Assembly (NCBI GenBank): GCA_023231005.1 | Contig: JALNWG010000006.1 | Span: 43,060-107,059 of the forward strand | Reading direction: 5' to 3' | Origin: Bacteroidales bacterium | Lineage (GTDB): Bacteria > Bacteroidota > Bacteroidia > Bacteroidales > FEN-979 | Length of the DNA: 64,000 bases | Shown: piece after piece, positions 24,661 through 64,000 of the stretch | Numbering within the stretch: position 1 is the first letter of the stretch | Layout: each line of letters begins with the position of its first letter | The notes under the pieces: model-generated | Told to the model about the DNA's origin: nothing | Database searches by the model: none | What the model saw: only the letters and a program-made list of their open reading frames with translations | Made by a program: the position numbers and the translations under genes

Positions 24661-25242
24661 TTAACTGATAATACAAGTTATAGTTATCGTCAGCAACCCA
24701 AGTATTTCACCATCTACCGGTGCTTCTACCGGCACACCATCTTTAGGAATTGTGACAGCTCCATCCCCTGCAGCCAGGCTAAAATAAAGCCAGTTATCTT
24801 GTGACAGGGCTGAGAATGAAAAGACAGTCGTTTCTGTTCCGGTGTAGGCAGCCTGGATTGGCAACTGGGTTAAAAGAAGTCCCTGATCATTTACCCCGGT
24901 TCTGCATTCAATATTGAAATCCACCCTCGATTCATTGCTGAAATGAGAATCAATCCTCACTACTGTCTGGTCCTCATATAATCTCACAAAGACCATTGCA
25001 GATTTACTCGAAGGATTCGGGATATTCAGTATGTACTGTTTTACCTGCTGAACCTGGCCGCCACCTCCGGTTTCTCCCCATGGAATCCAATAACTGCCGT
25101 TCCACAGATAGGCTGTGAACTTTCCGGAATTATAATACAACTGCCCTTCTACCGGATTTTGAGGTAAATCCGGTAGATTATGCAGGACAGCGTTTAATAG
25201 TTGATTTTGTTGAATGTCCAGATTGGACTTAAATGAAGGCAT
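24661..25242 (-). CDS. phage tail-fibre-like protein (short paralogue)
   Basis: 193 aa. The N-terminal ~55 aa is homologous to the N-terminus of the 363-aa fibre (L.D...N.L.NAV..NL...P..P..GQ.Y...WNG..W). Confidence 0.5.
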   Translation of the reverse strand: MPSFKSNLDIQQNQLLNAVLHNLPDLPQNPVEGQLYYNSGKFTAYLWNGSYWIPWGETGGGGQVQQVKQYILNIPNPSSKSAMVFVRLYEDQTVVRIDSHFSNESRVDFNIECRTGVNDQGLLLTQLPIQAAYTGTETTVFSFSALSQDNWLYFSLAAGDGAVTIPKDGVPVEAPVDGEILGLLTITITCIIS

Positions 25243-25264
25243 AACAGCTTTTTAAGTTTCCAGA

Positions 25265-26356
25265 TTATCCCACAATTACGATCTGACCGGTAATTGCAGT
25301 TGCAGAAGTCCAGGTTACGTCACCGGCAGCGTTCACGTTGATGTCCACTTCAACTGAATAGCGGGTTGTTGAAATGGTTTCATAAACCGAAACAACCACA
25401 TCGGCGGTGCAACCATGTGTAGCAGCTGCAATGGTCTGAGTTGCAACACCGGTGATTGCTCCCACATATTTCTTGGTTCGCCCAGTGGTTTTTCCGTCAA
25501 CATAGGTCTTTGTGGCTTTCTGGGTTGCAAGCCTGGTATCACTGTTTGCAGTCAGAGTTCCATCAGTATCAATGACACCGGCCTTGAAATTATCGGTTTC
25601 AAGGTTGTTGATCGTATTGCTATCAGCATCGATGGATTTGTTGGTCAAGGTCTGGACGGCCGCCAACCTTACCAGATCAGAGGATTCAGTGTTGTCGACC
25701 CCGTCGAAGTCGGCAGCGACAATGGCGGAACCTTTGGTAACATTGGCAATTACCATATCACCAACGCTCACTCCGGCACCGGATGGAGTACTCACCCCGG
25801 AAGTCGTACCGGCAACAGTCACTTTCCAGAACCATCCTTTTTGAATGGTCGTGATCCCTTGGGCTGCAATGGTCTGGCTTCCATCAAAGGTACCTTTGTA
25901 AACCATCCCGGCAGTGATTTGACCCTGAATAGCCGCAACCTGACCGTCAACATAGGTCTTGGTAGCCTTCTGGCTGGCCACTTTCACATCGGAATTAGCC
26001 GCCAGGTTACCATCAATATCAAGGTACGCCAAAGGCATTTGCTTGATATCATCAACATTGGTCAACCCTACCTGTGCCTTGGTTGTGGCGTGAGGGTTGG
26101 AAGTCGATGCAAGATGGGTGTCAATCGCGGCATGGGTATTCGTACCCCGGTTGAGCAGGGAATTGTGATCAATAGCTGTGGGATCAACGCATTTTACCCA
26201 GACCGTTCCATTCCAGTATTTCTCATAATTATCCGTCGTGTCGAAATACTTCTGGCCTTTGATCGGGCTTGCCGGGGCCGATGCCAGGTTTTGAATTACA
26301 GCATTCTGCAATTCGTTTTTGTTGAAGTCCAACGGGACCAGTACTTTTTTTGCCAT
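25265..26356 (-). CDS. phage tail fibre protein
   Basis: 363 aa. Internal repeat [20 protein letters not shown] / [20 protein letters not shown], typical of fibre repeats. Ala/Thr/Gly/Val-rich. Confidence 0.65.
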
Positions 26357-26384
26357 GTTTGTGATTTTAAGGTTTGTAAAAAGG

Positions 26385-27146
26385 TTAACTGTAAATTATT
26401 TTTCCACTTGCAGGTGGATTCAGCCGGATCACCATCTGATCAGTAGATTCATGAGTAATTTCCGAGATCAGTTCACGACCGGTGGTGTCCACAACAACCA
26501 CAGTCGGGTATTTTTGAAGGTTATGCTGAATCGTAATTTCGCTTTGGTTGACAAAAGATTGTACAACTTGAGGCGCTGAGCTTCCACCGCCGCCACCGGG
26601 AGTTCCTGAAGCTGCCGGGTCAACGATCCGGTAAAGAAAGAAAAGTTCGATCTGTGCGCTTCCGGATTTTGGGTTCTCACCACCGGACAGGCAAACATAA
26701 ACCGGGGTGTTGGTAAACAACTGTGTCGAAAAAACTGGCGTCATGCGCTGTATTTCCATCGACGAAGACATAAGAACCAATGACGGGAAATAACCCCAAT
26801 CCTGTGTTTCAGTATCGCCATCCGTTGTAACATTCAATGTCTGGTTAGGATAAATGTTCAACCCTCCAATTGGCGGTGGTGTCGGAGTGATCCGGGCAAT
26901 AAGAGAAATCAGGTCAATGATTTTTCCGGATCCCGGAGCCGGGATGATTACATGGATCTCTGTCAGGCGATTGCTTTCATCTTCGGTAATTACATGCTTT
27001 CCCGCAATGACAGGCGAAGACTGGCTATTTTGCAGACTGTTATACAGTTCTGTGAAGTTTTCATTGATTTTCTTCCCGCCAACGCGGAGTTTGTCACCCC
27101 TTTTATCGCCCGGTACAATCCCGAGATTTATTTCTTGTCTTGCCAT
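26385..27146 (-). CDS. phage receptor-binding / tail-fibre-like protein
   Basis: 253 aa. The N-terminal [23 protein letters not shown] resembles the GDxLRxxxxKxNxNFxxL motif of phage fibre and spike N-termini. A poly-Gly linker precedes a ~65-aa C-terminal domain. Confidence 0.5.
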
Positions 27147-27149
27147 AGC

Positions 27150-28847
27150 TTAATATTCTATCTGGTCAAATGTTATTTCCATGTCGTCAAAGCTGACCTC
27201 TATATTATCCCAGGTCAGCGGCTGGGGAAGAATGACCGGATTAGCCGAGCTTTCCGGAACATGAACCGAAAAGAAGGAGTTCTGATACGAGCGTTCATAC
27301 TCGATTTCGAGGTTGTACATGTATTCTCCGTCTTTGAGGAATGGAGTTATTTTTGCCGATTTGACGACAATCTGGAACAGTTCTTTCCCGATCTGTTCAT
27401 ATGCCTCCAGGGATAAGAGAAGCTCCCTGAGGCAATTCTTTTCTTCAAGGGATATCCACCCGGAATTGGCTTTGCAGATTTCCGTCTCTTTGGCACTGAA
27501 CTGTTTGGCGGGAGCATTAAAGAAGGAGTATTTTTCCTCCCTGACAATGGAACCGAACAAGCGTTCATATTCCAGGTTGAGTTCGGACTTACCTAAAAAC
27601 CTGAAAGTATCATAGGCCGAAAAAGAGTTGCGATAAAAAAAGACTTTTTCATTCTCGAAAACCCGGGAATCGTTATTGAACACTCTGCGTTCAGATAGAT
27701 AGTCGTCATTGCTGTCCATTAGAAACACTTCCCATGACCGGACAACTTTGCCGGGCTGGACATTTACCAGGTCAAGATGATCAAACCCGACCTTGAATTC
27801 TATCACTGAAAAGGCAGGATAGACCACCTGAGGGGTTGCATTAATCACTTTGTGGGAACCATCGGTGAAATTGACGATTACAACCATTCGGTATTGAACA
27901 GCTGACGGGTTATCCTGAAAAAGGAAAAAGAGCTTTTCCATCACTCCGCTGCGGGAATACTTTGCCAAAGGAAGCCAGGAAAGAAATTTCTGCTTGTTTG
28001 CCGCAATGGAGAAGTATTCCAGGTATTTTTCATTCAGCGATGTCAGCAGTTCATGGTTAAGGCCGCCGGCCAAAGCATATTTCCAACCGTTCGACTGCAG
28101 GCCTTTGACATTGCCGGCAATGCTTTCTGCAAACGAAATCCGGTATTTGAGAAGGTAATCCCATCCGTGAGATTTGACATTGCCTGAGAGTTCAGGGAAT
28201 TCAAAACGTTGCATTTCCCAAGCGGTAAACTTTGACTGGATGTAATCCGATATATCAAACCTTGCACAACCGATGAAATCGGCGGGCTTGATGTCCTCCC
28301 CTATCGGATTATTAGCAGAATCGCGCACCAGGCACAGGATACCAAAGAAATCCTGGTACTGATCATCGGTTCCGGGAGTATTAACCCCCTGCCCTACCCC
28401 GATAACGTTGACATTTGAGAAAACTATAGAGCCATCAGTTCCGGAATTTTTCGCCTGAAGGTGGATCTTCCTGTTGCTCGTTCCCGGACCATCCAGCGTT
28501 ACGTTGAAATATTTCTGGATGTCGTAATTCTCAAGGAAACACTGATAAATACTGTTTGCAAAGTCATTGAAAGTCTGGCCGAAAGAACCCACTTCAAATA
28601 ACAGGCCGTCAAAGTCGGTAAGCCCGGCAGTTTTAAATTCCAGGGTTTTACCCGCAAATTGAAGTTTGAAGGAATGGCCAATTGAAGTATCAACTGCTGA
28701 TACCACCAGTTCAAAGGATGCACGGCTGCCAAGTGAGATAAGATAACTATCCGAGCAAGCTTCGTAAATGACGGGATTCCCGGCAAATGAAATGAAGTTG
28801 GGCGACTCCGTGATATCGATCATGGTGCAATAGTACCATGAGATCAC
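27150..28847 (-). CDS. large phage tail/baseplate-region protein, unknown family
   Basis: 565-aa ORF (alternative start MIDITESP at 28823). Lies between the tape-measure-proximal protein and the fibres. Tightly packed operon. Confidence 0.4.
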   Translation of the reverse strand: MISWYYCTMIDITESPNFISFAGNPVIYEACSDSYLISLGSRASFELVVSAVDTSIGHSFKLQFAGKTLEFKTAGLTDFDGLLFEVGSFGQTFNDFANSIYQCFLENYDIQKYFNVTLDGPGTSNRKIHLQAKNSGTDGSIVFSNVNVIGVGQGVNTPGTDDQYQDFFGILCLVRDSANNPIGEDIKPADFIGCARFDISDYIQSKFTAWEMQRFEFPELSGNVKSHGWDYLLKYRISFAESIAGNVKGLQSNGWKYALAGGLNHELLTSLNEKYLEYFSIAANKQKFLSWLPLAKYSRSGVMEKLFFLFQDNPSAVQYRMVVIVNFTDGSHKVINATPQVVYPAFSVIEFKVGFDHLDLVNVQPGKVVRSWEVFLMDSNDDYLSERRVFNNDSRVFENEKVFFYRNSFSAYDTFRFLGKSELNLEYERLFGSIVREEKYSFFNAPAKQFSAKETEICKANSGWISLEEKNCLRELLLSLEAYEQIGKELFQIVVKSAKITPFLKDGEYMYNLEIEYERSYQNSFFSVHVPESSANPVILPQPLTWDNIEVSFDDMEITFDQIEY

Positions 28848-28866
28848 AGGGAAATAAAGGACAGTA

Positions 28867-30498
28867 TCAGGGTGACGTGAAGCACTTGAGTTGAGCGGAT
28901 TTAATCGAGGATTTGTTCAGGGTGACGGAAATTTCACTGATAAGGTAATTGATCCCATTAATGCGGTAACGCTTAGTGAAATCAAGGTTTTTCAATTCTA
29001 TAAAATCCATCTGTTTTTCGATCTTTACGCTCTTGCGATCATCCATGATCCAGTTTACCCAATCTTTCCAATATAGATTGAATAACCCATTAGGGCCCGG
29101 GTACCGCAATGAAAAATTGCTGTTGTTGGCAAAACCCCTGAGCCTTACCGGTGTTCCCCACCCGCCTGCCATCCCCACCCAAAACAATCGAGGTGTAATT
29201 TTCTGGTAATCTGCTCCCAGGTTTCCGCAGTTCACCGAAATGTACTTATCAGGCAATGAGGAAAAAATCGTTTCGAACTTATTTTTCTCATCACCCCATT
29301 TGTAGAAGAACTTATCTGTGAGCATCGGCCCGGCAGGTAGTTGTTGCCATTCAATCAGAAATGTATAGGGGTTGACCGCCAACTGCCACCAGGTATTTGT
29401 ATCCACGATATAATAGATGTCTCCCAGCCAGGTAAATGGATATGGGGGAATATCAGAAAAATGCTGAACAGCGCCTTTGATCATTTCTGTAATACCTTTC
29501 TCAGCGTCCAGTTGTGCCTGGTATGCCATATCACCTGCATCAGGTCCCAACAGGAATCGGAACCCGGTAATCTGTTCGGGGATCTCCTGAGTGAGCGAAA
29601 GGATATTCTTTGAAAACTCCACAATCTCCGAGCGAAGCAACACCTCTTTGTTGCCGACGATGCGTATTACCCGTTGCCGGGTATCAACATGAAAACTGCA
29701 ATTGAACCACTTTTCCAGTCCTGCGATAAATTCGCTGACCTTCACATTTGGCACAAGGCGACAATAATAAAGCTTTTGCAGCCCGAACAAAACTTCGCTC
29801 AGGCTTACCGAATTGTAGACAACCAGGCGCGAAAGTTCGATGCTGGAAGTAAAAAATTCATCCTGCAGCCGGTACCCGAAAATTTCGGCCAGTTTGTTCA
29901 ATACGAATTTCAGGTAAAGAAAAGGGGTCAAAATGGTTCTGCATTGCCCGTCAGTTGTGTACTTTCTCAGCCAGCCATCAGGAAATATGTAGTTATAGGA
30001 CATCAGTTCCGGGTTGGTTGCCGGGGGATCATAAAAAGTAGGGTTACTTATTTCTGGCATCGAGAAATCCACCTCGGGATAAAAATGAGTCAACGACCAG
30101 TTGAAATAATCTACCGCCTGCTGATCACTCGCAAAGCTCATCATCCCTAAGTCCACCCGGTTCAAAAAGATGTCCTTCACCTCGAAATTGAAATTCCCCT
30201 TGTTGATGTATAGGGTTCCTTCAAATGTCTTCTCCCCGGCTGTTTTGATCTTGATCTGACCGGTGTACAAAACCATCCCGTTCCAGCGGATACTTCCTTC
30301 GAAAGTCTCATAGATGCTCCGGGTTGATGCGATCCGGTTCTTCCATCCCAGGATTGAAACATTTCTTGCAGTGGACGGAACCTTGAAGGGAAAAGAATAA
30401 TCTCCAACATCGTTGAAGATCGGAGATTTGAGATTCAGGGAAACCGAAAAATCATCGTTCAGGTCAAGGGATTGATCACCAATCAGGATGGAAAGCAT
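28867..30498 (-). CDS. large phage distal-tail-region protein, unknown family
   Basis: 543-aa ORF immediately downstream of the tape measure (12-nt gap). Positional inference only. Confidence 0.4.
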   Translation of the reverse strand: MLSILIGDQSLDLNDDFSVSLNLKSPIFNDVGDYSFPFKVPSTARNVSILGWKNRIASTRSIYETFEGSIRWNGMVLYTGQIKIKTAGEKTFEGTLYINKGNFNFEVKDIFLNRVDLGMMSFASDQQAVDYFNWSLTHFYPEVDFSMPEISNPTFYDPPATNPELMSYNYIFPDGWLRKYTTDGQCRTILTPFLYLKFVLNKLAEIFGYRLQDEFFTSSIELSRLVVYNSVSLSEVLFGLQKLYYCRLVPNVKVSEFIAGLEKWFNCSFHVDTRQRVIRIVGNKEVLLRSEIVEFSKNILSLTQEIPEQITGFRFLLGPDAGDMAYQAQLDAEKGITEMIKGAVQHFSDIPPYPFTWLGDIYYIVDTNTWWQLAVNPYTFLIEWQQLPAGPMLTDKFFYKWGDEKNKFETIFSSLPDKYISVNCGNLGADYQKITPRLFWVGMAGGWGTPVRLRGFANNSNFSLRYPGPNGLFNLYWKDWVNWIMDDRKSVKIEKQMDFIELKNLDFTKRYRINGINYLISEISVTLNKSSIKSAQLKCFTSP

Positions 30499-30510
30499 AA
30501 TTTTCTACGA

Positions 30511-48775: not shown

Positions 48776-48776
48776 A

Positions 48777-54111: not shown

Positions 54112-55569
54112 TCAATTTTCTTGAATGGGTGAAGATGCCATCAAACGTTGTAACCAGGAAATTGCCGTGTTGTAATCTACAACAGCTTCAATCTTTTTAA
54201 ATTCATAATCAAGCAACTGCTGCCTGACCCGTAAAATATCAGTGAGCGGGACAACAGATGTGGAAAGGCCTTTTAACATGATGTCAAGTGTTTTGCCGGC
54301 CAGATCACTCTGACTATCGTATAACTTCACCCTGCGTTGCCCGTCTTTAAATAATTGAACCGCTTCGTAATAGTTGGTTTGCAGAGAATTGGCCGTTGCT
54401 TGGTAATTTTCCTTATTGGCAGATTTCAATAACTCAGCCTCGATTTTCATGGCATTGTACTTATTCCGGTATATGGGCAAGGTAACCGTTGCCATCGGCA
54501 TGATCATATCCTTACCATTCATTGACGATGTGGACATCGCGCTTTTACTGATCACAGAATAATTCAATCCCAGCCCCATCATCGGATACCCCATTTTGGT
54601 AACCATTTTTTGGCGTGCATCCAGCGATTGCTGCTCGTATTGCAGCATCCCCAGCATGGGGTTATGTGAAAGCATGCTGTCTGTTACCGCAAGAAGTGAT
54701 AAGCCAAGTGAATCAGGAATAAGCTGATCAGGTAATTGAACAGGTGAAGCTGAAGGTCGGTTCAAATAAGCATTGAAACGGGCTTCGATTGTGTTTCGCT
54801 GGGTCTTCAACAGTTCAATATTGTTTTCAAGTTCACCAATTTCGATCTGAATCCTGTATAAATCGGCCAAGCCTGATCCACCGGATGAGCTGCCCATGGA
54901 GCTGCTTTGCATGGCAGATGGTGACTGAGCTGAACTTGCTCCCGACTGGCCACCGGAATTTCCACCCATGGTCTGCATTCCTTGTGGATTTGCGGAACTG
55001 CTTTGTGATGAGCCCGCCGGATTGGATGTTCCTGATGCAGGACTACTGTTTCCTCCTGCCGGAGCTGCTTTAAATTTCACCAGGGTGAGCCGCTCAATCG
55101 TATGCAGGATATCAAGGTTCTTTTCAGAAATCCGAATATCCTGCTGAACTTTCTGCAACTCGTACCAGCTCTTTTTCACATCAAAAAACACCTGCAATTT
55201 GGCATCCCTGAATGATTCAAATTTTGCTTTTGCCATAAGACTCATCTCATCCTTTGCGGATTTCAGCGTACCGAACCAGGGAAACATCTGCATCAGTTTT
55301 ATATCTGCGTTCTGTCTACCGTCAACGAGTTCCATGGGTTGAATAAATACTCCGACGTTTAATTCAGGATCCGGTAACGCTCCAACCTGCGGAACTTTTT
55401 GAAGTGCAGCCTGATATTCATAGAACTTCTGTTGAACAGTCGGGTTGTTCTTTGCTGATATGACCAGGTATTGCAACAGTGAGTCCGGTTGTTTCTGGCT
55501 GCTGGCAACAAACCAACCACAGGCCCCGATGAAAGCCAGCAATATGTTTTTATAAGCTGTGATTTTCAT
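54112..55569 (-). CDS. TolC-family outer-membrane factor with Ser/Gly/Gln/Met low-complexity insertion
   Basis: 485 aa. Two OEP-like repeats. Residues ~168-233 are low-complexity (AAPAGGNSSPASG...MQTMGGNSGG...AMQSSSMGSSSGGSG). Confidence 0.85.
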   Translation of the reverse strand: MKITAYKNILLAFIGACGWFVASSQKQPDSLLQYLVISAKNNPTVQQKFYEYQAALQKVPQVGALPDPELNVGVFIQPMELVDGRQNADIKLMQMFPWFGTLKSAKDEMSLMAKAKFESFRDAKLQVFFDVKKSWYELQKVQQDIRISEKNLDILHTIERLTLVKFKAAPAGGNSSPASGTSNPAGSSQSSSANPQGMQTMGGNSGGQSGASSAQSPSAMQSSSMGSSSGGSGLADLYRIQIEIGELENNIELLKTQRNTIEARFNAYLNRPSASPVQLPDQLIPDSLGLSLLAVTDSMLSHNPMLGMLQYEQQSLDARQKMVTKMGYPMMGLGLNYSVISKSAMSTSSMNGKDMIMPMATVTLPIYRNKYNAMKIEAELLKSANKENYQATANSLQTNYYEAVQLFKDGQRRVKLYDSQSDLAGKTLDIMLKGLSTSVVPLTDILRVRQQLLDYEFKKIEAVVDYNTAISWLQRLMASSPIQEN

Positions 55570-55571
55570 CT

Positions 55572-58500
55572 CTATTGGGTATTACTTGTTTGAATTGCTT
55601 TTTTATTGGCGCGCAATACTGCCCTTTCTCTCCACATCGCCTGGAACATCGGGACCACAAAGACGGTCATCACCTGGATGATCATACCACCAAAGGTTGG
55701 TATCGCCATGGGGACCATAATATCAGCCCCCTTCCCGGTTGATGTTAAAACAGGTAAGAGCGCAATCACCGCAACCGCGGTGGTCATCATGGCAGGGCGG
55801 ACACGTTTCAGCCCGGCAGCAACCACCGCTTCACGAACTTCGTGGACGGTCGTTGGATGTCGTTGTTCAAATACCTGGTGTATGTATGTTCCCATAATCA
55901 CCCCGTCATTGGTAGCAATGCCAAAAAGGGCAATAAAACCGACCCAGACTGCGACACTCAGGTTGATGGTATGCATCTGGAACATATCCCGCAGGTTAAT
56001 TCCGGCAACGGAAAAGTTCATAAACCAACCCTGTCCATAGAGCCAGAGCATTATAAATCCACCGGCAAACGCCACAAAAACACCTGAAAAATGAATGAAG
56101 GCGGCGGTCACCGTACGGAACTGGAAGTACAACAGCAGCAATATAAGGATCAGACTGATGGGGATTACGATGGAGAGCCTTTTTGTGGCCCTGATCTGCT
56201 GTTCATAATTCCCGGCAAATTTGTATGAAACCCCGGGAGGCAGTTTTATACCGCCGGTGCTTATTTTCGCCTGGATGATTTTTGCGGCATCTTCAACTAC
56301 ATCAACTTCGGCTTTACCTTCCTGCATATCGAAGATCACATATCCAACCAGGAAGGTATTTTCACTACGAATCATTTGCGCACCCCTGGTGTAGTCAATG
56401 TCGGCGATCTCACCCAGCGGAACCTGCACGCCATTCATAGCAGGGATCAGAATGCGTTTAATATCATCTGGATTATCCCTTAGTTCACGGGCATAACGGA
56501 CCCTGATCGGGAATCTTTCACGTCCTTCAACTGAGTTGCTGAGCGACATGCCTCCAACTGCCACCTGCAGAATTTCCTGCACGTCGCTGATGCTCATTCC
56601 GTAGCGGGCCATCGCTTCACGGTTCAGCTTAATTTCAAGATAAGGAGCACCAACTGCACGGTCGTAGAATACAGATGTGGCTTTTACAGAAGGGACATCT
56701 TTCAAAACTTTCTCGAACATCATACCTGCCTGTTCGATCGATTCCAGGTCGGGCCCATAGACCTTCAGTCCCATGGGTGCCCGCATCCCGGTGGAGAGCA
56801 TGACCAACCGTGTTTCAATGGGCTGTAATTTCGGTGCTGATGTCAAACCCGGAATGTTGGTCACTTTGACGATTTCATTCCAGATATCGTTTGGTTTTTT
56901 AATCTGCGGGCGCCATTGACGGAAAAATTCGCCTTTTTCGTCCGGAATAAGACTGTCTGCCGGAATTATTCTGAATGTCTCTTTTTCAGGATTGTACTTT
57001 GATCCATTTTTTAACCGGTAGTAATCATTCCTGTCCGTTTTGAACCGCATCCTGTGTCCGTCTTCATCAAGAATATATTCTGACCGGTAGTTTATGGTAT
57101 TCTCGAACATCTGAACAGGTGCGGGATCCAATGCTGAATTCACCCGGCCCCATTTGCCGACGGCAATTTCAACTTCAGGAATGACCGAAAGCCGTTTATC
57201 AAGCGTTTCGATGTACTCAAGGTTTTTTTCAATGCTCGAATGAGGCATACTGGTGGGCATCAGCAGGTATGAACCTTCATTAAGTGAAGGCATGAATTCT
57301 TTACCGGTACCGGGAAATGTTTTCACCGCACCCTGCCATACCGCTGTCTGTCTCACACTCTTCCAGCCGATCTTCTCCAAACCATCCGGGACAATTCCGA
57401 AAATTTTATCAATGCCCTGCCATGCCAGGATGCCGAAAAGCAAAGTAAAAGCAGGAAGCATAAGGAATTTCCATTTATGGATCAAACACCACCGAAGGAT
57501 GGGTTCATAAAAATGTACCATGGTCATCAAGGCACCAAGAATGACAGTCACGATACCGGCCACAAAAATGAAGTTGACAACAGAACTGTTGTGAGCGCCC
57601 AATGGAAGCCATTCGATGGAAAGGTACCAGACAGCTACCAAAACAGTGATGGCAATGTTGATGTAGTTGGTTATTGCACTGCTTTTTTCTTTCCACAGAT
57701 GTCCGGATAAATTATTGAATCCGATGGCAACCAAAGCCAAAGCCGGCCATGTGTGCCAGAAAATGACAAACAGGACCCCTGCACCAATTAGAATTCCGTT
57801 CCAGATTTTGCGAATTTTGGTCTTGTCAAAACGTATATTAAAAAAAATGTGCACCAGTGTTGGCAAAACAATGATGCCAAGTAGAAAAGCCGACAGAAGG
57901 GCAAACGTTTTGGTAAAGGCCAATGGTCGGAAAAGTTTTCCTTCGGCAGCTTCCATGGCAAATACAGGTAAGAAACTTACTATGGTAGTGGCAATCGAAG
58001 TAACCACGGCAGCTCTCACTTCTGTAGTCGCCTGGTAGATGACATCCAGCAATTTCTTTCCCCGTATCCCCTTATTCTCCGGCATCTCCAGGTGTCGAAG
58101 GATATTCTCTACATCCACAATACCAATGTCAACCATAACGCCAATAGCAATTGCAATTCCTGACAAGGCGACAATGTTGGCATCAACCCCGAAGAAGCGC
58201 ATCAGGATAAAGGTCATCAGCACTCCCAAAGGCAATAATCCGGCGACAATGAATGAAGCCCGCAGGTTCATGACAAGCACAATAATGACGATGATGCTGA
58301 TAAGGATTTCATGGGACAGGGCATATTCAAGGGTGCCAATGGTTTCCTTGATCAACCCGGTCCTGTCGTAGAAAGGAACAATGCTCACTTTTGAGATACT
58401 GCCATCCGGCAAGGTCTTTTGAGGCAACCCTGCTTCAATTTCCTTTATCTTCTGTTTCACATTGCCGATGACCTCCATCGGATTGGAACCGTAACGGGCA

Positions 58501-59423
58501 ACAACAACCGCCCCCACGGCCTCTGATCCGGCTTTGTCAAGTCCCCCGCGGCGTGTAGCCGGTCCAAATGTAGTATGGCCAATATCCTTTATTCTGACCG
58601 GAACATTGTTCCGAACGGCGACCACGGAGTTTTCAAGATCATCGAGGTTCTTGATATAACCAAGTCCTCTGATGATATACTCCACATTGTTCAATTCAAT
58701 GGTTTCAGCACCGATGTCGAGATTGCTTTTACGAACGGCATTCATCACATCCATGACTGAAACACTGAATGCTTTTAATGCTTCAGGGTTAAGATCGACC
58801 TGGTACTCCTTTACAAAACCACCCACCGATGCCACTTCTGAGACCCCTTCCGCAGTTGCCAGGCCATATTTTACATAAAAATCCTGGATCGTGCGTAGCT
58901 CCGCCGGATCCCATCCGCCATTTGGCTTCCCGGTTTTGGGATCCCGCCCTTCAAGTGTGTACCAGAATATCTGACCCAGCGCCGTTGCATCAGGCCCTAA
59001 CGTTGGCTGCACGCCTGCTGGCAAGGTCCCGGATGGCAATGAATTGAGTTTTTCCAGGATACGGGAGCGACTCCAATAGAATTCAACTTTATCTTTAAAG
59101 ATGATATAGATGAACGACATGCCAAACATGGAGGTACTTCGAACCGTACTCACCCCGGGAATTCCCAACAAGGCAGTGGTTAATGGATAGGTCACCTGGT
59201 CCTGGATATCTTTAGGAGAGCGACCCATCCATTCGGTAGCAACTATTTGCTGGTTGTCACCAATGTCAGGGATCGCATCCACTGGTACCGGGTCGCGTGG
59301 AATAAAACCGGTTTGCCAGTTAAACGGTGCAAACACAATCCCACCGACAATAAAGGCGATCAGAAAAATGAAAGTGATCAGCCGGTTATCCAGGAAATAC
59401 TTTACAAGTCGGTTAAAAAACAT
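55572..59423 (-). CDS. CusA-type Cu(I)/Ag(I) RND pump, long form
   Basis: 1283 aa. IAIAIGVMVDIGIVDVEN parallels the CusA TM4 motif. YLLMPT, VQMFEN and LVMLSTG align, by recollection, with the CusA Met573/623/672 contexts. Extra hydrophobic block at residues ~538-640. Confidence 0.88.
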   Translation of the reverse strand: MFFNRLVKYFLDNRLITFIFLIAFIVGGIVFAPFNWQTGFIPRDPVPVDAIPDIGDNQQIVATEWMGRSPKDIQDQVTYPLTTALLGIPGVSTVRSTSMFGMSFIYIIFKDKVEFYWSRSRILEKLNSLPSGTLPAGVQPTLGPDATALGQIFWYTLEGRDPKTGKPNGGWDPAELRTIQDFYVKYGLATAEGVSEVASVGGFVKEYQVDLNPEALKAFSVSVMDVMNAVRKSNLDIGAETIELNNVEYIIRGLGYIKNLDDLENSVVAVRNNVPVRIKDIGHTTFGPATRRGGLDKAGSEAVGAVVVARYGSNPMEVIGNVKQKIKEIEAGLPQKTLPDGSISKVSIVPFYDRTGLIKETIGTLEYALSHEILISIIVIIVLVMNLRASFIVAGLLPLGVLMTFILMRFFGVDANIVALSGIAIAIGVMVDIGIVDVENILRHLEMPENKGIRGKKLLDVIYQATTEVRAAVVTSIATTIVSFLPVFAMEAAEGKLFRPLAFTKTFALLSAFLLGIIVLPTLVHIFFNIRFDKTKIRKIWNGILIGAGVLFVIFWHTWPALALVAIGFNNLSGHLWKEKSSAITNYINIAITVLVAVWYLSIEWLPLGAHNSSVVNFIFVAGIVTVILGALMTMVHFYEPILRWCLIHKWKFLMLPAFTLLFGILAWQGIDKIFGIVPDGLEKIGWKSVRQTAVWQGAVKTFPGTGKEFMPSLNEGSYLLMPTSMPHSSIEKNLEYIETLDKRLSVIPEVEIAVGKWGRVNSALDPAPVQMFENTINYRSEYILDEDGHRMRFKTDRNDYYRLKNGSKYNPEKETFRIIPADSLIPDEKGEFFRQWRPQIKKPNDIWNEIVKVTNIPGLTSAPKLQPIETRLVMLSTGMRAPMGLKVYGPDLESIEQAGMMFEKVLKDVPSVKATSVFYDRAVGAPYLEIKLNREAMARYGMSISDVQEILQVAVGGMSLSNSVEGRERFPIRVRYARELRDNPDDIKRILIPAMNGVQVPLGEIADIDYTRGAQMIRSENTFLVGYVIFDMQEGKAEVDVVEDAAKIIQAKISTGGIKLPPGVSYKFAGNYEQQIRATKRLSIVIPISLILILLLLYFQFRTVTAAFIHFSGVFVAFAGGFIMLWLYGQGWFMNFSVAGINLRDMFQMHTINLSVAVWVGFIALFGIATNDGVIMGTYIHQVFEQRHPTTVHEVREAVVAAGLKRVRPAMMTTAVAVIALLPVLTSTGKGADIMVPMAIPTFGGMIIQVMTVFVVPMFQAMWRERAVLRANKKAIQTSNTQ

Positions 59424-59480
59424 AGATTTAATTTAAAAACATGATCCATTTCGCCATTTACACGCTCATTTTCAGCTAAG

Positions 59481-60584
59481 TTAGTACTTTAATAAAGTTC
59501 CACCAAAGGAATCGTTGTTATTCAAAACGATGGTATAAAAATAAATACCGGAAGGCAGCTTATCTCCGTTGATAATTATCTTATTATCAGTAATAGTTTC
59601 ATCAACCTGAACTCTTTTCCCGATTGAATTGTAGAGTGAAACAGAAAGAAGAGTTCTCCCCGCATCAAGTTGCAATGTCACGACAGAAGAAAACGGATTT
59701 GGAAAAGCATGAAAACCTTCGGCTGGGTTGTTCTCATTGAGTCCCAGGGCAGATGTACTTTTAGCATAATACCGGACTTGCTGAAAATAAGGAGGCTGTT
59801 GATTCTGAAAACCCCTATTGATCTGTAGTATCGGGAAGCCGGTGCTTTTTGCGTACCACCTGTAATAGTAATTGTCAGGATAAACATGAACATCGGTGAT
59901 CACATTATTCACATATAAGGTGTCATACACCGTTTCAGTAGTCTTTATCCGGATTACCTGAGCTGTAGTATCCGGGATTGTGATCGTACCCCATCCATCG
60001 ACAACGGATTTGCTGACAACATGATATACCCTCAATGTATCACCGGAAATCGGAATATGGATTTTGGCAACATTTTCCGATGAATCGCCATAGGCTAAAA
60101 GTGGGAAAATAGTCAGGTTCGAGCCAAGAACTATGTTGGACGGATCCTCAAGACCATACTTTGACAATCCGGTTATATCCCGGATGTAATGATCATAATA
60201 GCACTGTGTTATGTCAGTGTGGGTAATATGGGAGTGATACATGTAACACCGCTCTTTTCGTGCAATATTCGAAAGTGGAAAATAACCTGCATTAAGGGTG
60301 GCATCATGGTTAATCCAGTCGACGGTATCCAGGGAGGCCTGTAGACTTCCACAACATGGGATTAGTATGCTGAAATCCCATGTTATATTGGCACCGGACG
60401 GGCCTGGCAAAAGGGTTACCCCCTGAGCGCTGTCAACCCTGACGCTGAACTGAACATCTCCTGGTTGCGGCAAGTCATTGATATCAAGTGATATTTGAGC
60501 CATCCCGGGTACAATCAACAGGATCGTAATAAAAAACGCAAGAACCGCTTTCAAAAATGTTTGATGTGTTTTTTTCATTTTCAT
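59481..60584 (-). CDS. T9SS-sorted secreted protein of unknown function inside the Cu cassette
   Basis: Signal peptide. C-terminal AFPNPFSSVVTLQL...LPSGIYFYTIVL is a T9SS CTD pattern. His/Cys-rich patch CYMYHSHITHTDITQCYYDHY. Confidence 0.6.
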   Translation of the reverse strand: MKMKKTHQTFLKAVLAFFITILLIVPGMAQISLDINDLPQPGDVQFSVRVDSAQGVTLLPGPSGANITWDFSILIPCCGSLQASLDTVDWINHDATLNAGYFPLSNIARKERCYMYHSHITHTDITQCYYDHYIRDITGLSKYGLEDPSNIVLGSNLTIFPLLAYGDSSENVAKIHIPISGDTLRVYHVVSKSVVDGWGTITIPDTTAQVIRIKTTETVYDTLYVNNVITDVHVYPDNYYYRWYAKSTGFPILQINRGFQNQQPPYFQQVRYYAKSTSALGLNENNPAEGFHAFPNPFSSVVTLQLDAGRTLLSVSLYNSIGKRVQVDETITDNKIIINGDKLPSGIYFYTIVLNNNDSFGGTLLKY

Positions 60585-60622
60585 ATTGTTTTATGGTCTG
60601 ATTAGGTGACTGATATATATGA

Positions 60623-60910
60623 CTACCGCATACCACATCCCCCGCCACTACCACCGTAATTGTAGCCGTCTTTATTACGTTTCATCTTACAATCACCATG
60701 GTTATGGCCCCCCTTGGCATCGGCTGTGACCAGGTCCATGCCGCATTTTGGGCATGAGCCTGGCTTTTCGCTGACCACTTCAGGGTGCATCGGGCATGTG
60801 TAAGTTACTTTACCCTGACCTGCAGCAGTCGGGCTTGCTTTAGGAGCACAACCGGCAATTGTAATCATCATTGCTGCAATCAGACCGAAAATCAAATTCA
60901 CTGGTTTCAT
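60623..60910 (-). CDS. small lipoprotein with CPMHP...CPxCGM heavy-metal-binding domain
   Basis: Lipobox IAGC. YTCPMHPEVVSEKPGSCPKCGMDL is the same module as the N-terminus of the CusB-like protein. His/Cys/Gly tail GGHNHGDC...GGGCGMR. Confidence 0.7.
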   Translation of the reverse strand: MKPVNLIFGLIAAMMITIAGCAPKASPTAAGQGKVTYTCPMHPEVVSEKPGSCPKCGMDLVTADAKGGHNHGDCKMKRNKDGYNYGGSGGGCGMR

Positions 60911-60921
60911 ATACTATGATA

Positions 60922-61473
60922 TTAATTGAGATGCAACTTCGCATGTTCTTTTCTCATTGTCTGCATGTTATCAACCATGCTTTGCATATTAGCTGACATG
61001 GTTCCCATGGCCGGGCAGTTTTTCATGTGAAGCAACATCATGCTGTCCATTTTCATCGTGGTCATGTTCATCATATTTCCCATTACCACCATCATGCTGT
61101 CCATGTTGCACATCATACCACCAGAACCACCCATCATGCCGCCAGAACCGCCCATCATACCATTGGATCCCATTCCGTTCATCTTCATCATGTCTTTGCA
61201 ATAGGTCTGGAAGTGCATGGCAAAAGAGGTGTCTGGCATATGATATAAGCTGTCGTACATTTTGCAGGTCGAATCCATCATGGTCATCCCAGGCGTTTTA
61301 TGGCGTTCAACCAGTAAAGATTCATATTGTTGTGCCTGCGAATAATCTTTATTCAGCAAGGCTTCAGTAGCCTTCAAATCTGCCGAATTAGTGTCAGGTG
61401 TCGTTTTACTTTTGTTACAACTTGCCGCAAATAACATCACGGCTCCAATGGCAATAATTGCAATTTTTCTCAT
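60922..61473 (-). CDS. Met-rich lipoprotein (putative periplasmic Cu(I)/Ag(I) binder)
   Basis: Lipobox FAASC. GMMGGSGGMMGGSGGMM repeat and MxM/MMxM runs throughout the C-terminal 110 aa. Confidence 0.7.
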   Translation of the reverse strand: MRKIAIIAIGAVMLFAASCNKSKTTPDTNSADLKATEALLNKDYSQAQQYESLLVERHKTPGMTMMDSTCKMYDSLYHMPDTSFAMHFQTYCKDMMKMNGMGSNGMMGGSGGMMGGSGGMMCNMDSMMVVMGNMMNMTTMKMDSMMLLHMKNCPAMGTMSANMQSMVDNMQTMRKEHAKLHLN

Positions 61474-61594
61474 TTTGAATAATTTTAATTTGTGGATAAA
61501 TAATTGAAATGACTTGCGACGCTGATAGCAACATCAAAAGCAGGAAAATGCCGTTAATTCAGGCAGATCCTTACAAGGATAATGAAATGGATTT

Positions 61595-61996
61595 TCAGAA
61601 AAGGAAAACCTGCAGGACTTGGGAAGTCTGTCCTGAACAAATAGGTTTTGACGTAAAGGGATTTTTTCGAAGTCCTCCTGATCCGTCATTCATGAGGGAT
61701 AATTCAGGTGAATTCGAGAATGCAAGTATAGTAGGCAGCGATACTTGTTCCAATTGTGTTTGAAATCCTGCCTTAAAGTCTAAATGATCCTGGGTGGATT
61801 CAAATTGATCGGTGATCTTGAGACTGATCTTTTCATTATGACAACCCGGGCAATTGCCGTTACAGCAATTGTCGGGTGTCGAATACAAAGCCGTATGCAT
61901 GAGATTTTTGCCACAATAATGCCGGGTTATTGTCAATCCGGTCGTACCGAAAAGCAACGCAATGATCATTAAAATATGTCCGGCCTTCTTAAGCAT
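61595..61996 (-). CDS. small membrane-anchored Cys-rich protein (HYC...CC...CPGC motifs; HYC_CC_PP-like by recollection)
   Basis: N-terminal TM ILMIIALLFGTTGLTI, then RHYCGKNL, DNCCNGNCPGCHNE. A -7 box TAATTTTG (62001-62008) lies 4 nt before the ATG. Confidence 0.55.
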   Translation of the reverse strand: MLKKAGHILMIIALLFGTTGLTITRHYCGKNLMHTALYSTPDNCCNGNCPGCHNEKISLKITDQFESTQDHLDFKAGFQTQLEQVSLPTILAFSNSPELSLMNDGSGGLRKNPFTSKPICSGQTSQVLQVFLF

Positions 61997-62055
61997 GCAA
62001 CAAAATTACTAACATTTAAGACTAATAACGATTATTGTTTCAAAATATTACGCTT

Positions 62056-62070
62056 GGATAAAATTTATCC
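62056..62070. promoter_or_regulatory. 15-bp palindrome GGATAAA-A-TTTATCC upstream of the Cys-rich gene
   Basis: Perfect 7-bp arms. Lies 60-75 nt upstream of the ATG at 61996, just upstream of the -7 box. Confidence 0.3.
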
Positions 62071-62139
62071 TATGTAAAGTTAGACAACCAAATCAATAAA
62101 AACTTGCGGTATATCATAAAAAAAGTTGAATGCCTTATC

Positions 62140-62916
62140 CTACTTGATTACCATAAAAGTAAATACCGTGTTACCATCCATCCCTGTGGTCATGTCCATC
62201 ACTTCGATGATACCCTTAACACCTGATGCGGTAATATACCCAAGCATGTCACCCATCGCCAGATTTTTTACCGACGAACCGGTTACCATAGATACCGCTT
62301 CAGGAGTTTCATCCATGATTATACCGACTTTAGTATTGTTTTTAGTTGTCCAGGTTGATAAATTGAATATGGGATCGGATGGGGCGCCAATACAAACACC
62401 ATCTGTGGTGGAATATGTGTAAACCAGGTCAACCGATCCTTGATGTGTAAAAGCATTGGCGGCAGTATATGTTGCCAAAGTTGAACCATTGATGAAACTT
62501 GAAAACGTACTTGTCGTTGTTCCTAAAGTGATTTCAATGTCTTTTACAATAGAATAGGTAAGCGTCTTTTGGATTGGCACATCAGAAAGACCACCTTTTT
62601 CTGAAATCGTGAAAACCAAAGTTCCAACAGAGTCAGTTACAATATAATTTACCACTGCTGAATAACTTTTACTGTTGGTAACACCAGGAATGGCAACTAC
62701 TTTGCCTCCTGTCTTGGTCATGGTAATCGAGTTAATATCATCATTTGAGGTTGATCCCTTGATTGTTAATGGAATAGTGTCGCCTAAATGCCCGATTGCC
62801 CTGTCCTGGGTCACTGTCAGGGTCATATCAGAGGTCTCAGCGCTTTTTTTACAGCTTGCTACCATAAGAGCAAGACTTGCAAGAAAGATTACGGATAATG
62901 TATTTATATTTTTCAT
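62140..62916 (-). CDS. beta-rich lipoprotein, unknown function
   Basis: Lipobox VASC. 258 aa, Thr/Ser/Val-rich. Own -7 box TATCTTTG (62941-62948, minus strand). Followed by CTTTTTTTATGA. Confidence 0.45.
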   Translation of the reverse strand: MKNINTLSVIFLASLALMVASCKKSAETSDMTLTVTQDRAIGHLGDTIPLTIKGSTSNDDINSITMTKTGGKVVAIPGVTNSKSYSAVVNYIVTDSVGTLVFTISEKGGLSDVPIQKTLTYSIVKDIEITLGTTTSTFSSFINGSTLATYTAANAFTHQGSVDLVYTYSTTDGVCIGAPSDPIFNLSTWTTKNNTKVGIIMDETPEAVSMVTGSSVKNLAMGDMLGYITASGVKGIIEVMDMTTGMDGNTVFTFMVIK

Positions 62917-63054
62917 GTGTCGTTATTTAGAATGATTCTGCAAAGATATACTTAAATATCTTGATAATTACATATATTTGAATTTAATCTCAATAAGGTT
63001 AAGTACTATAAATTAATTCCATGCTAAGGATAACCCATTTGTTTGCTGCTTTAC

Positions 63055-63070
63055 GACCATAAAAAAAGCG
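63055..63070. repeat. 16-bp direct repeat GACCATAAAAAAAGCG, copy 2 (high-coordinate edge of cassette 2)
   Basis: Identical to 51995-52010. Confidence 0.6.
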
Positions 63071-63091
63071 TTCAGGCCTTAGCCTGAACGC
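63061..63091 (-). terminator. rho-independent terminator after the 148-aa gene
   Basis: Minus-strand gcgttcaggc-taag-gcctgaacgc (perfect 10-bp stem) followed by TTTTTTT. Confidence 0.75.
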
Positions 63092-63115
63092 CGAAATCTC
63101 AGATTTGACCGAAGG

Positions 63116-63562
63116 TCAGAACTTGATTTTTCCTTCAACATCAGAGATGCTTGCATCGAAGGATGATCTGAGAAAATCAATGACTTTCTTGATGCCAGGG
63201 GTGAAACTGGTAGTGAAGACATTTCCGTCTGAGTCGTTCAGCCGCATGGAGCAGTTGAAATCATTGGAGGCTGTCTGAAACCTTTCCAGTTCGCTCCGGG
63301 TCTGGACCAGCTTCGCCCTTTTTTCGATGACCAGTTGGAGGTTTTCGACCTTGAGGATCTTCTCCATCAGGGTCATTTCCTTGACCGGTTCAGGAGCAGG
63401 AACAACGGGTTTTTCAAGTTCGACCTTCAAGAGCGGCTTTTGCTCCTCGGTTTTGTTCTCTTCAGGGTTGAGAACCGTTTTTGCGGCTGCAAGAACTGCG
63501 TTTTCTTCCTTGGATGCTCCGCCGTTGGTCGGCTTCAGTACTGGTGCTGTAATCTTTGTCAT
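63116..63562 (-). CDS. hypothetical protein with Pro/Glu/Lys-rich N-terminal half
   Basis: 148-aa ORF between the SSB-side intergenic region and cassette 2. No motif recognised. Confidence 0.4.
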   Translation of the reverse strand: MTKITAPVLKPTNGGASKEENAVLAAAKTVLNPEENKTEEQKPLLKVELEKPVVPAPEPVKEMTLMEKILKVENLQLVIEKRAKLVQTRSELERFQTASNDFNCSMRLNDSDGNVFTTSFTPGIKKVIDFLRSSFDASISDVEGKIKF

Positions 63563-63824
63563 TGTGTTTCGCTGCTGCCTTGCAGACTTTTTTAGGCATC
63601 TGGCTCGCCGGGGTTTAAGAAAAAATTTATGCCACCGGGAACAAACGGAGTGAAAATTTTAAGCAAGAGTTCAGGTCATGATTTTATGCAATAAAATCTG
63701 AATGAACCCCAAGGGTGACGGTGCCAGAAGGCGGTCACTCTTAGCGAAAAAGATTTTCACGAGTTTAACTTTGCTGCAAATTTTGAGTAATAGTGGGTTG
63801 GCTTTTGCTTGCTTTTTATAAAAG

Positions 63825-63942
63825 CTGCCCGGAAGGGATTTCTTTTTTGGCAGGGTTTCTTCTTTGTCCTGGTCTCAAAGAAAAAAGCCTGATTCGCGAA
63901 AAAAAAAAGACTGCCGGAAGGGCAGCCTTTCTCAGGGTTTCT
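63825..63942. repeat. two imperfect ~35-bp direct repeats (CTGCC(C)GGAAGGG ... CAGGGTTTCT)
   Basis: Copy 1 at 63825-63860 and copy 2 at 63911-63942. Copy 2 contains the hairpin ctgcc-ggaag-ggcag preceded by A10, which acts as a minus-strand terminator for the edge gene. Confidence 0.45.
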
Positions 63943-63950
63943 GTGTTTGA

Positions 63951-64000
63951 TCAGAAGGGGATTTCATCTGATGGCGTTTCTTTGGAGACCTTCTTTGAAG
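63951..64000 (-). CDS. ssb: 3' end of a single-stranded DNA-binding protein gene (partial, runs off the window)
   Basis: Hand translation of the minus strand gives ...SKKVSKETPSDEIPF*. The acidic D-E-I-P-F tail matches the conserved SSB C-terminal tip (DDIPF/DDLPF type). A terminator lies 26 nt downstream. Confidence 0.45.
   Translation of the reverse strand, partial: SKKVSKETPSDEIPF

Follow-up and report, generated by a model that had tools for sequence, protein, structure and literature searches.

A Bacteroidales prophage carrying two predicted metal-efflux cassettes in hypervariable cargo slots

The window analysed here is a stretch of 64,000 nucleotides from an uncultured Bacteroidales bacterium (GenBank assembly GCA_023231005.1, contig JALNWG010000006.1, positions 43,060 to 107,059 of the forward strand), which forms part of the 151-kb ENA metagenome contig ERZ27247350:k141_757587, a megahit assembly. 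The region from 24661 to 64000 is very probably part of a real and apparently complete integrated prophage of a siphovirus-like temperate phage, and this is the best explanation of the region as a whole. The prophage carries two cassettes with the gene content of metal-efflux systems, one of Cu/Ag type and one of Zn/Cd type, at two positions within the virion-gene order that are empty or occupied by unrelated genes in related phages. It runs from 22867 to about 86634 in window numbering, on the same contig and with a direct repeat at each end, and 24661-64000 represents its left, tail-proximal two thirds. A reading of this region from its letters and open reading frames (ORFs), hereafter the sequence-only reading, had proposed moron-like cargo within the virion-gene order of a phage, and the completeness of the prophage and the empty or differently filled slots of its relatives bear this out. 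Following the contig rightwards, a check named in that reading, yielded the terminase, the capsid protein and the second copy of the attachment (att) repeat.

The boundaries of the element are set by the att repeat, and its left end holds the following features.

22867 to 22882, no strand: attL core AATATTAATTATAAGA, an exact 16-bp direct repeat with its second copy at the other end of the prophage
23101 to 24586, plus strand: a 191-amino acid (aa) gene, function without assignment, followed by the 301-aa tyrosine integrase at 23681-24586 (PF00589, PF02899, phrog_1)

The second copy of AATATTAATTATAAGA lies outside the window, at the extrapolated position 86619-86634, where it coincides with the start of the 96%-identical phage DNA of a contig from a sister sample (L063); the host DNA next to this right copy does not align with L063. 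Since the homology to the L063 phage starts exactly at the right att copy, the element measures 63,768 bp. The left host flank encodes ClpB, GyrA and a TPR protein, while the right one encodes an epimerase, a steroid dehydrogenase (Steroid_dh) and ClpS. Integration was achieved by the tyrosine integrase at the 16-bp att core, between the TPR-protein gene and the epimerase gene. The 191-aa gene and the integrase both lie within the att repeats, and the identical arrangement is found in an independent Logan contig, L078, which spans attL. The integrase occupies one end of the prophage and the lysogeny/replication module the other, and no tRNA gene that might serve as att site is present in the window. 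The cargo does not show the distinct base composition expected of a moron, the GC content being 0.42 in the Zn cargo and 0.44 in the Cu cargo against 0.43 in the remaining element; the host flanks are at 0.37-0.38.

The backbone encodes the structural, packaging and lysis functions of a tailed phage.

24661 to 27146, minus strand: three tail-fibre-like or receptor-binding proteins of 193, 363 and 253 aa, with common N-termini (phrog_8309, phrog_677, PF07880 T4_gp9_10_N)
27150 to 30498, minus strand: two large tail proteins of 557 and 543 aa, function proposed from position only
30511 to 34323, minus strand: tail tape measure protein (PF10145, E 4e-16; phrog_25337, E 3e-71)
34292 to 34732, minus strand: 146-aa gene upstream of the tape measure gene, right anchor of slot B, conserved beside the tape measure gene in relatives
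46464 to 51974, minus strand: backbone block of nine genes, in an order conserved in about 40 loci
50248 to 51585, minus strand: portal protein of 445 aa within this block (phrog_11226, E 1.5e-4, weak by sequence; predicted fold)
63116 to 63562, minus strand: conserved 148-aa backbone gene, left anchor of slot A, immediately preceding the 129-aa gene in loci with an empty slot A
63951 to 64000, continuing outside the window (L001 9301-9612), minus strand: C-terminal end of a 103-aa protein, ...SDEIPF, resembling the tip of a single-stranded DNA-binding protein (SSB)
L076 11813-12760, outside the window on the same contig: 315-aa capsid protein, HK97-fold by model

The ORF layout places all supported genes from 24661 to 64000 on the minus strand, as the sequence-only reading had stated. 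Two small plus-strand gene calls at 61509-61972 were rejected: a minus-strand ORF overlapping them scores above the NCBIfam cut-off for HYC_CC_PP and is the better call. In transcription order, the block at 46464-51974 encodes a 129-aa protein (likely start at 51932), the portal, a 336-aa protein with two DUF6712 stretches, a 96-aa holin-like protein, a 56-aa protein, a GH108 endolysin, a spanin-like 170-aa protein with a lipobox and a C-terminal transmembrane segment, and proteins of 268 and 163 aa; the holin-like, endolysin and spanin-like genes make up the lysis cassette. Neighbouring genes overlap by 1-14 nt or lie at most 6 nt apart, and the gene calls agree in this with the order and spacing described earlier. 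The tail, portal and lysis parts recognised in that description are likewise confirmed by the tape measure families PF10145 and phrog_25337, the fibre N-termini, GH108, the two DUF6712 stretches and the portal fold.

Sequence-only searches of the Protein Data Bank (PDB) with portal and capsid profiles gave nothing meaningful, and fold comparison was needed for both proteins. The AlphaFold2 (AF2) model of the portal, built with 34 homologues, has a mean confidence (pLDDT) of 77, and its top Foldseek matches are phage portals and those of gene transfer agents (GTAs), at E 4e-10. The model has 119 PDB matches at E<=1e-3, and among the 50 listed, all are portal or neck structures; a homologue in Polaribacter phage Leef_1 is annotated as portal. 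The fold of the 445-aa protein is, by its modelled structure, that of a portal. For the 315-aa protein, Pfam gave no match. Its AF2 model (pLDDT 78), made from P0001, the representative of its 90%-identity cluster rather than the contig protein itself, matches P2/P4, HK97 and GTA capsid proteins in Foldseek at E 2e-11 to 1e-8, by which the 315-aa protein is modelled as an HK97-fold capsid protein. No family match was obtained for the 557-aa and 543-aa tail proteins in Pfam and PHROG scans; in two relatives (L022 and L014), a conserved copy of the 543-aa protein follows the tape measure gene. The 146-aa protein is, from its position, a candidate tail assembly chaperone. None of the ORFs scanned matches a tail sheath, as in the siphovirus type, and none was recognised as the major tail protein. 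The 103-aa protein, taken earlier for the tail of an SSB, is too short for a canonical OB-fold SSB and unlike one in sequence; possibly, it is a small protein whose C-terminal tip resembles that of an SSB.

To the right of the window, the contig continues with ArdC, a type II restriction-modification set, RadC, the large terminase subunit TerL, a candidate small subunit TerS, HNH and an opposite-strand HTH/Peptidase_M78 pair; further right are found a 185-aa protein, the 315-aa protein, an S49/ClpP head protease, small genes, a 732-aa protein, a divergent 117-aa gene and host genes. The capsid and terminase genes that could not be recognised by eye within the window therefore exist, 8-16 kb past its end. 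TerL was identified through its L043 orthologue (98% aa identity), which matches phrog_2 at E 2.8e-9, and through tblastn matches to annotated terminases; the head maturation protease matches phrog_53 at E 2e-52 and, on the same contig, S49/ClpP Pfam families. Two more cargo sets belong to the same prophage outside the window. One, between RadC and ArdC (L001 3368-7310), is the restriction-modification set, composed of a PLD/NgoFVII-type endonuclease, an HTH protein and an Eco57I-family methylase. The other lies on the opposite strand after the capsid genes (L076 13423-15104) and consists of the HTH_3/Peptidase_M78 (ImmA/IrrE-like) gene and a 201-aa gene.

The portal protein provides access to the relatives of this prophage: 38 portal loci were found in GTDB genomes, nearly all of them metagenome-assembled genomes (MAGs) of Bacteroidales, and 3 in IMG/VR, together with 551 homologues in the protein collection. 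The window proteins, mapped onto about 40 related loci, follow one conserved gene order. The prophage belongs to a large undescribed phage family with fixed, hypervariable cargo slots, and this family is known only from MAGs and metagenomes. Slot A is located between the 148-aa gene and the block of the 129-aa and portal genes, and slot B between the 163-aa gene and the block of the 146-aa and tape measure genes. Related genomes with the same backbone and no cargo, which the earlier note had named as a check, were found for both positions. Slot A is empty in 12 of the 17 loci, with a gap of 80-190 nt, and is occupied by 1.9-6.2 kb in the remaining ones. For slot B, four of 13 loci are empty (28-180 nt) and the rest hold 1.1-5.7 kb. 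Toxins are among the genes that take up these gaps in relatives. In other phages, slot A is occupied by Fic, by Schlafen/AlbA_2, by an AhpC-type (peroxiredoxin-type) protein or by a type IIG restriction-modification gene with RhuM and PIN, and slot B by Fn3/Lcl_C giants, a UDG-superfamily protein, a HATPase_c_3 protein with methyltransferases, or proteins secreted by the type IX secretion system (T9SS). The slot cargo of relatives falls into 51 protein clusters, 49 of which are singletons. The stretch between RadC and ArdC and the position following the 185-aa gene vary as well, and the distance from TerL to the 129-aa gene is no more than about 320 nt in distant relatives. Among the slot A and slot B loci compared, the two cassettes of the window are the biggest occupants, with 11,141 bp (Cu) and 11,731 bp (Zn), and together they amount to 36% of the prophage genome. 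A megablast search with the tail block found no DNA-level similarity to GenBank phages.

Several MAGs in this family contain four to five contigs bearing the portal at 87-99% identity (bin-0522, C15 bin.17, bin-2870 and Kiruna bin-1621, among GTDB loci L005-L042). Many of these contigs stop inside or beside the portal gene, and their slot A cargo varies. Either the genomes concerned each contain several related prophages, or strain variants were placed in the same bin.

The two cassettes are laid out as follows.

52072 to 62916, minus strand: Cu/Ag-type cargo in slot A, 11.1 kb (Pfam/NCBIfam matches)
34826 to 46400, minus strand: Zn/Cd-type cargo in slot B, 11.7 kb (Pfam/NCBIfam matches)
40938 to 45323, minus strand: Zn pump fusion ORF of 1461 aa, permease of the resistance-nodulation-division (RND) family plus outer-membrane efflux protein (OEP) domain

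Both had been recognised by the sequence-only reading, and the family matches bear it out. The Cu cassette begins, in transcription order, with genes for a 258-aa protein, a 133-aa HYC_CC_PP protein, a 183-aa protein, a 95-aa HMBD protein and a 367-aa protein with a T9SS sorting tail; a CusA-type RND pump (1283 aa), an OEP, a CusB-like membrane fusion protein (MFP) with HMBD and HMA domains and a 115-aa HMA protein follow. The Zn cassette opens with a Fur-family regulator and DUF6660, followed by the CzcA-type RND-OEP fusion, an MFP, a P-II protein and a P1B-2 ATPase; its last genes encode a 199-aa protein, a DUF302 protein, an HMA-like protein of 171 aa and a 187-aa protein. Both RND pumps exceed the TIGR00914 (CusA/CzcA) cut-off of 701, with scores of 783.6 and 1174.9, and both systems include MFPs of the HlyD_D23/CusB type as well as OEP domains, so that the tripartite set of heavy-metal efflux (HME) RND systems is present in each. 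In transmembrane helix 4 (TM4), the Cu pump has the motif AIGVMVDIGIVDVEN, of pattern AIG..D, and the Zn pump the motif DFGLIVDGAVIIVES, of pattern DFG..DGA..VE. We take the first pattern to be CusA-like and the second CzcA-like. The ATPase reaches a score of 523 with TIGR01512 (IB2, the Cd/Zn family; cut-off 313.5) and stays below the ZntA equivalog cut-offs; it has CPC at residue 355, DKTGT at residue 399 and an N-terminal CASC (CxxC) in its HMA domain. In the pump fusion, the joint at residues of about 1036-1068 resembles an internal signal peptide (RRFRFSFKRK, a hydrophobic run, then ISAKA|Q), and full-length matches to the fusion, at 73-100% identity, are found in nearly all of the 80 closest metagenome loci. 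From these features, slot A is predicted to hold a CusCBA-type Cu/Ag efflux cluster, and slot B a CzcCBA-type pump with a P1B-2 ATPase and a Fur-family regulator, the metal specificities being predictions in both cases.

The same 80 loci, from JGI metagenomes, point to the source of the Zn cassette. Seventy-eight of them have no phage genes in their 10-kb flanks, the exceptions being L085 and L163, and several chromosomal-looking ones repeat the order Fur, pump, MFP, P-II, ATPase; in three loci, the Zn and Cu pump types are adjacent. Judged from these neighbourhoods, the Zn cassette type is of chromosomal Bacteroidales origin. Both cassettes were probably taken from chromosomal Bacteroidales metal-resistance operons. 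Within the phage family, L163 has a divergent Zn cassette in slot B (pump 73% and ATPase 83% identical at the aa level) in a backbone that is 89-90% identical, and a matching Cu cassette occupies slot A of L019 and L085.

The edges of the slots are themselves conserved elements.

34733 to 34796, minus strand: right edge of slot B, backbone element (hairpin 34796-34778, T-run, TGTCCTTT at 34772-34765, 20 nt, TTTCTTTG, 4 nt, ATG at 34732)
51932 to 52032, minus strand: right edge of slot A, backbone element (terminator 52032-52003, T-run, ATGGTC, TGTCCTTT at 51973-51966, 20 nt, TACTATTG, 5 nt, ATG at 51932)
63050 to 63089, minus strand: first copy of the backbone terminator and ATGGTCGTAAAGC element, directly after the 148-aa gene

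In relatives with an empty slot, a hairpin, a T-run, ATGGTCGTAAAGCC and AAAATAGTGTCCTTT come after the 148-aa gene, and the ATG of the next gene lies about 35 nt on. The terminator element occurs twice in the window, at 63089-63050 and 52032-51990, and the Cu cargo thus lies within a short direct repeat of 16 nt exact, CGCTTTTTTTATGGTC. At slot B, the hairpin and the GTCCTTT edge are common to L014 and L025, whose cargo differs; GTCCTTT is found in 10 of 10 closely related filled-slot loci and not in the empty-slot loci L016 and L022. The rho-independent terminators that had been assigned to the cassette ends are real, according to the terminator scan and to a fold z-score (-3.4 for that of slot A), yet comparison with relatives shows that they belong to the phage backbone and not to the cassettes.

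Read in the coding direction, TGTCCTTT occurs three times in the 63.8-kb element, always in an intergenic position before a late-gene block, and 38 of 40 relatives also have it ahead of the 129-aa gene. The three minus-strand sites (51932-51973, 34732-34772 and 28823-28863) have a common geometry, in which TGTCCTTT is followed by 20 nt, an 8-nt box, 4-5 nt and an ATG (51932, 34732 and 28823, respectively); the third, with its motif at 28856-28863, is identical in L022. The 8-nt boxes are one mismatch from the Bacteroidota -7 consensus TAnnTTTG. The three sites may be phage-specific late promoters that give rise to near-leaderless transcripts, and the presence of such promoters at the slot edges would explain why large inserts are tolerated at those positions. 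The cassettes, for their part, have TAnnTTTG boxes 22-25 nt upstream of their first genes, where they had been reported before. The motif is not enriched, however, with 53 occurrences in the window against 60.5 expected, and it was rejected as statistical evidence for cassette promoters.

Several independent assemblies contain the same joins between phage and cargo. L085, a 228-kb JGI contig (Ga0209749_1000051) with both cassettes, aligns with the window in a single stretch of 24.4 kb at 96.4% identity that passes through three junctions: it starts within the Cu cassette, covers the portal-lysis block and the entire Zn cassette, and ends in the tape measure gene. An 18-kb contig of JGI 3300075153 has the same gene order across both Zn junctions, and L019, a SPAdes contig of a GTDB MAG, carries the Cu cassette in slot A with 85% nt identity over cassette and backbone alike. 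Assembly chimerism had been suggested; the joining of phage and chromosomal metal-resistance contigs via shared repeats would suit a megahit metagenome contig in which short repeated terminator elements flank the Cu cargo on both sides; as these assemblies and that of L163 repeat the joins, and as the genes abut tightly on one strand, such a chimera is so improbable as to be nearly negligible. The opposite history, in which the cassettes are ancestral at the locus and the phage genes are scattered, non-collinear remnants of old insertions, would be in keeping with the mostly chromosomal setting of close Zn-operon homologues. It is nonetheless highly improbable: the phage genes form a single, complete and collinear genome enclosed by att repeats, the backbone order recurs in about 40 relatives whose two positions are empty or otherwise filled, and the host flanks differ while phage and cargo are conserved. 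A further rival, that of a domesticated element (a GTA or tailocin) or of a non-phage integrative element with borrowed tail genes, draws on the GTA structures among the portal and capsid matches, on the oversize genome, which would be packaged piecemeal in GTA fashion, and on the resemblance of ArdC, RadC and the restriction-modification genes to leading-region cargo of conjugative elements. ArdC and RadC are typical of conjugative elements; both are conserved backbone genes in close relatives of the prophage. This rival is very unlikely, given the integrase and att repeats, the TerS, TerL and HNH genes, the lysis cassette, a relative that assembles as a 43-kb circle, the divergent small-gene pair and 732-aa early-region protein at the other end, and the use of the same att site in divergent hosts. 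Moreover, no relaxase, coupling protein or mating-pair formation gene was found among the called genes and precomputed Pfam matches of the whole 63.8-kb element, ArdC and RadC being the only genes typical of such elements there. A Mu-like transposable phage, considered in view of the multi-copy pattern and of the opposite-strand 117-aa gene followed by the 732-aa protein, was rejected on account of the tyrosine integrase, the att repeat and the occurrence at the same locus in two hosts.

Whether the loaded phage still forms particles is harder to judge. Without both cassettes, the element would measure 40,896 bp. A distant family member, the only complete relative, assembles as a 43.0-kb circle with a 141-bp terminal overlap, many contigs with homologues of the capsid or portal protein are 41-45 kb long, and the closest cultured phages (Polaribacter phage Leef_1, a Flavobacterium siphovirus and Porphyromonas phages) have 37-45 kb. 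A tentative proposal, less likely than not, is that the loaded 64-kb phage is infectious and moves two complete metal-efflux systems (23 kb) between Bacteroidales that differ at about the genus level, its slots having evolved into cargo bays. In support, the phage of L063 and L165 (96% and 89.5% identical at the nt level) sits at the orthologous locus, where the flanking host epimerase is 63% identical in aa sequence, and the 228-kb L085 contig shares the capsid and 164-aa proteins with this phage. A loaded copy of about 96% identity in a host with a 63%-identical epimerase would thus appear to reflect recent horizontal movement of the loaded element. In addition, the Cu cassette and the backbone have diverged equally from those of L019 (about 85% nt), which indicates long co-inheritance within a recognisable phage lineage.

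A number of points weigh against this proposal. The genome is 1.48 times as long as that of the only complete relative and 1.4-1.7 times as long as those of the cultured ones. An HNH gene beside TerS and TerL is linked with cos-type packaging. This arrangement suggests that packaging is of the cos type, with a fixed unit length, in which case 64 kb would be hard to fit into a capsid made for about 43 kb. IMG/VR scans for close relatives of both pumps found nothing, and the predicted attP junction ...CACTTTTCAAATTG-TCTTATAATTAATATT-GGGAGGATAGTT... has no IMG/VR match either; both searches need near-exact words and are weak evidence. The assignment of L085 to a divergent host is an indirect link by neighbourhood grouping rather than read from sequence. 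Promoter function and metal specificity are predicted from motifs. For the loaded phage, induction, excision, virion formation and packaging are putative. It is accordingly possible, and no less tentative than infectivity, that the prophage is grounded: with 23 kb of metal cargo and about 6.5 kb of other cargo, its 63.8 kb would exceed the capsid capacity, and it would persist as a chromosomal resistance island that forms no infectious particles and is still able to excise and integrate. The size of the relatives, the putative cos-type packaging and the lack of a loaded copy in IMG/VR all favour this, whereas the co-divergence with L019 and the apparent presence of a loaded copy in another host do not. 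Nor does the state of the backbone, in which every ORF reached by a relative's locus aligns over its full length and none is truncated, the last four tail and fibre genes being without an independent comparator. The decaying prophage offered earlier as an explanation is at odds with these intact genes, and the part of it that survives concerns packaging.

If the loaded phage is infectious, the cargo bays would be spaces separating the blocks of virion genes, with a backbone terminator and a dedicated leaderless late promoter at the end of each, and inserts of more than 10 kb could be accepted without disturbing the expression of virion genes. The main explanation, that of a prophage with cargo slots, extends to function as well. 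With the terminator and promoter-like element at the right edge of the slot, inserted DNA should not cut late transcription. In the lysogen, the cassettes would be transcribed from their own promoters and would likely confer Cu/Ag and Zn/Cd tolerance, that is, lysogenic conversion. Related phages would trade cargo through homologous recombination within their conserved flanks.

Cargo at fixed intergenic sites between conserved phage genes is known from the morons of lambdoid phages and from the P2/P4 defence hotspots, and accessory hotspots of temperate phages have been described (bioRxiv 10.1101/2024.10.15.618418). As in those systems, the content is very diverse; the cargo here also has promoter-like sequences and, at its end, a terminator that belongs to the backbone. 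In contrast, the present prophage has two single inserts of 11 kb within its virion-gene order, which make up more than a third of the genome and encode multi-gene metal efflux instead of defence or virulence functions, and its right slot edges, like those of its relatives, combine a terminator with a promoter-like motif. Among cultured phages, Polaribacter phage Leef_1 (portal 35% and TerL 30% identical), Flavobacterium vB_FspS_laban6-1 and Porphyromonas gingivalis phages are the nearest relatives. These cultured Bacteroidota siphoviruses are similar in size to the cargo-free backbone, but their identity is low and DNA-level similarity is absent.

Metal-resistance genes have been reported in Paracoccus prophages with ZntA, a Cu ATPase and AcrABCR (PMC6536676), in the soil virome contig VC-2 (PMC8240259), in Streptococcus suis phi-SsUD.1, which carries cadA (FN997652), and in Burkholderia phage vB_E427, with cusS-cusR-cusA-MFP-partial OEP (PQ789820, PMC12860723). 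In these reports, as here, efflux genes inside predicted or induced prophages are read as lysogenic conversion. They concern single genes or one system, however, whereas the present prophage combines two complete tripartite HME-RND systems with a P1B-2 ATPase and a regulator, and here the empty-slot comparators and att boundaries rule out an artefact of delimitation. The vB_E427 record (L167, PQ789820.1) has cusS, cusR, a CusA-type pump, an MFP and a truncated OEP at 24440-31815 of a Mu-like phage, which suggests that its metal genes may be a co-packaged host flank rather than true cargo; it was set aside as a full precedent, being ambiguous on both counts. We found no prophage in which a P1B ATPase and a regulator accompany two complete tripartite HME-RND systems, nor a metal-cargo prophage so cleanly delimited by empty-slot comparators. 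The claim that no comparable phage had been described therefore holds for cargo on this scale and not for smaller metal cargo, RND components included, which has been reported in prophages. Compared with CusCFBA of E. coli, CzcCBA of Cupriavidus and ZntA/CadA, the cassettes share the CusA/CzcA family scores, the MFP and OEP partners, the TM4 motifs and the CPC ATPase. They differ from CusCFBA and CzcCBA in their Bacteroidota architecture, in which the Zn pump is fused to its outer-membrane factor, in the accessory DUF6660, HYC_CC_PP, HMBD and P-II genes, and in having Fur-family regulation instead of a two-component system.

The carriage of resistance determinants by phages is disputed, and most claims rest on poorly delimited 'viral' contigs. 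In the present case, the att repeats, the complete virion gene set, the relatives with empty slots and several independent assemblies make an artefact improbable. Should the loaded phage be infectious, it would provide a cleanly bounded natural example of the transfer of multi-gene metal resistance by a virus. Metal tolerance encoded by several genes could then be spread by temperate phages among Bacteroidales of freshwater and sediment, and the question would arise how a capsid filled in relatives by about 43 kb holds 64 kb. Should it not be, the prophage would illustrate clearly how such an element can be grounded by the cargo it carries. If the proposed role of the slot edges is true, the backbone terminator and the conserved promoter-like motif would explain how large inserts are tolerated within the virion-gene order.

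Reverse transcriptases (RVT_1) are found in the early region of some other members of the family, one with a GIIM domain marking a group II intron, and a glycosyltransferase cluster (Stealth_CR2, TOD1_MUCI70, Glycos_transf_2) occupies the slot behind the capsid gene in distant members; the loci concerned are L081 5936-6904, L083 3262-4215 and L064 1233-2483. Finally, L014 (SACF01000030.1) has the backbone of the Bacteroidales phage (portal 88%, tape measure 90%) in a MAG named 'Alphaproteobacteria bacterium', a label that is probably due to a binning or labelling error.

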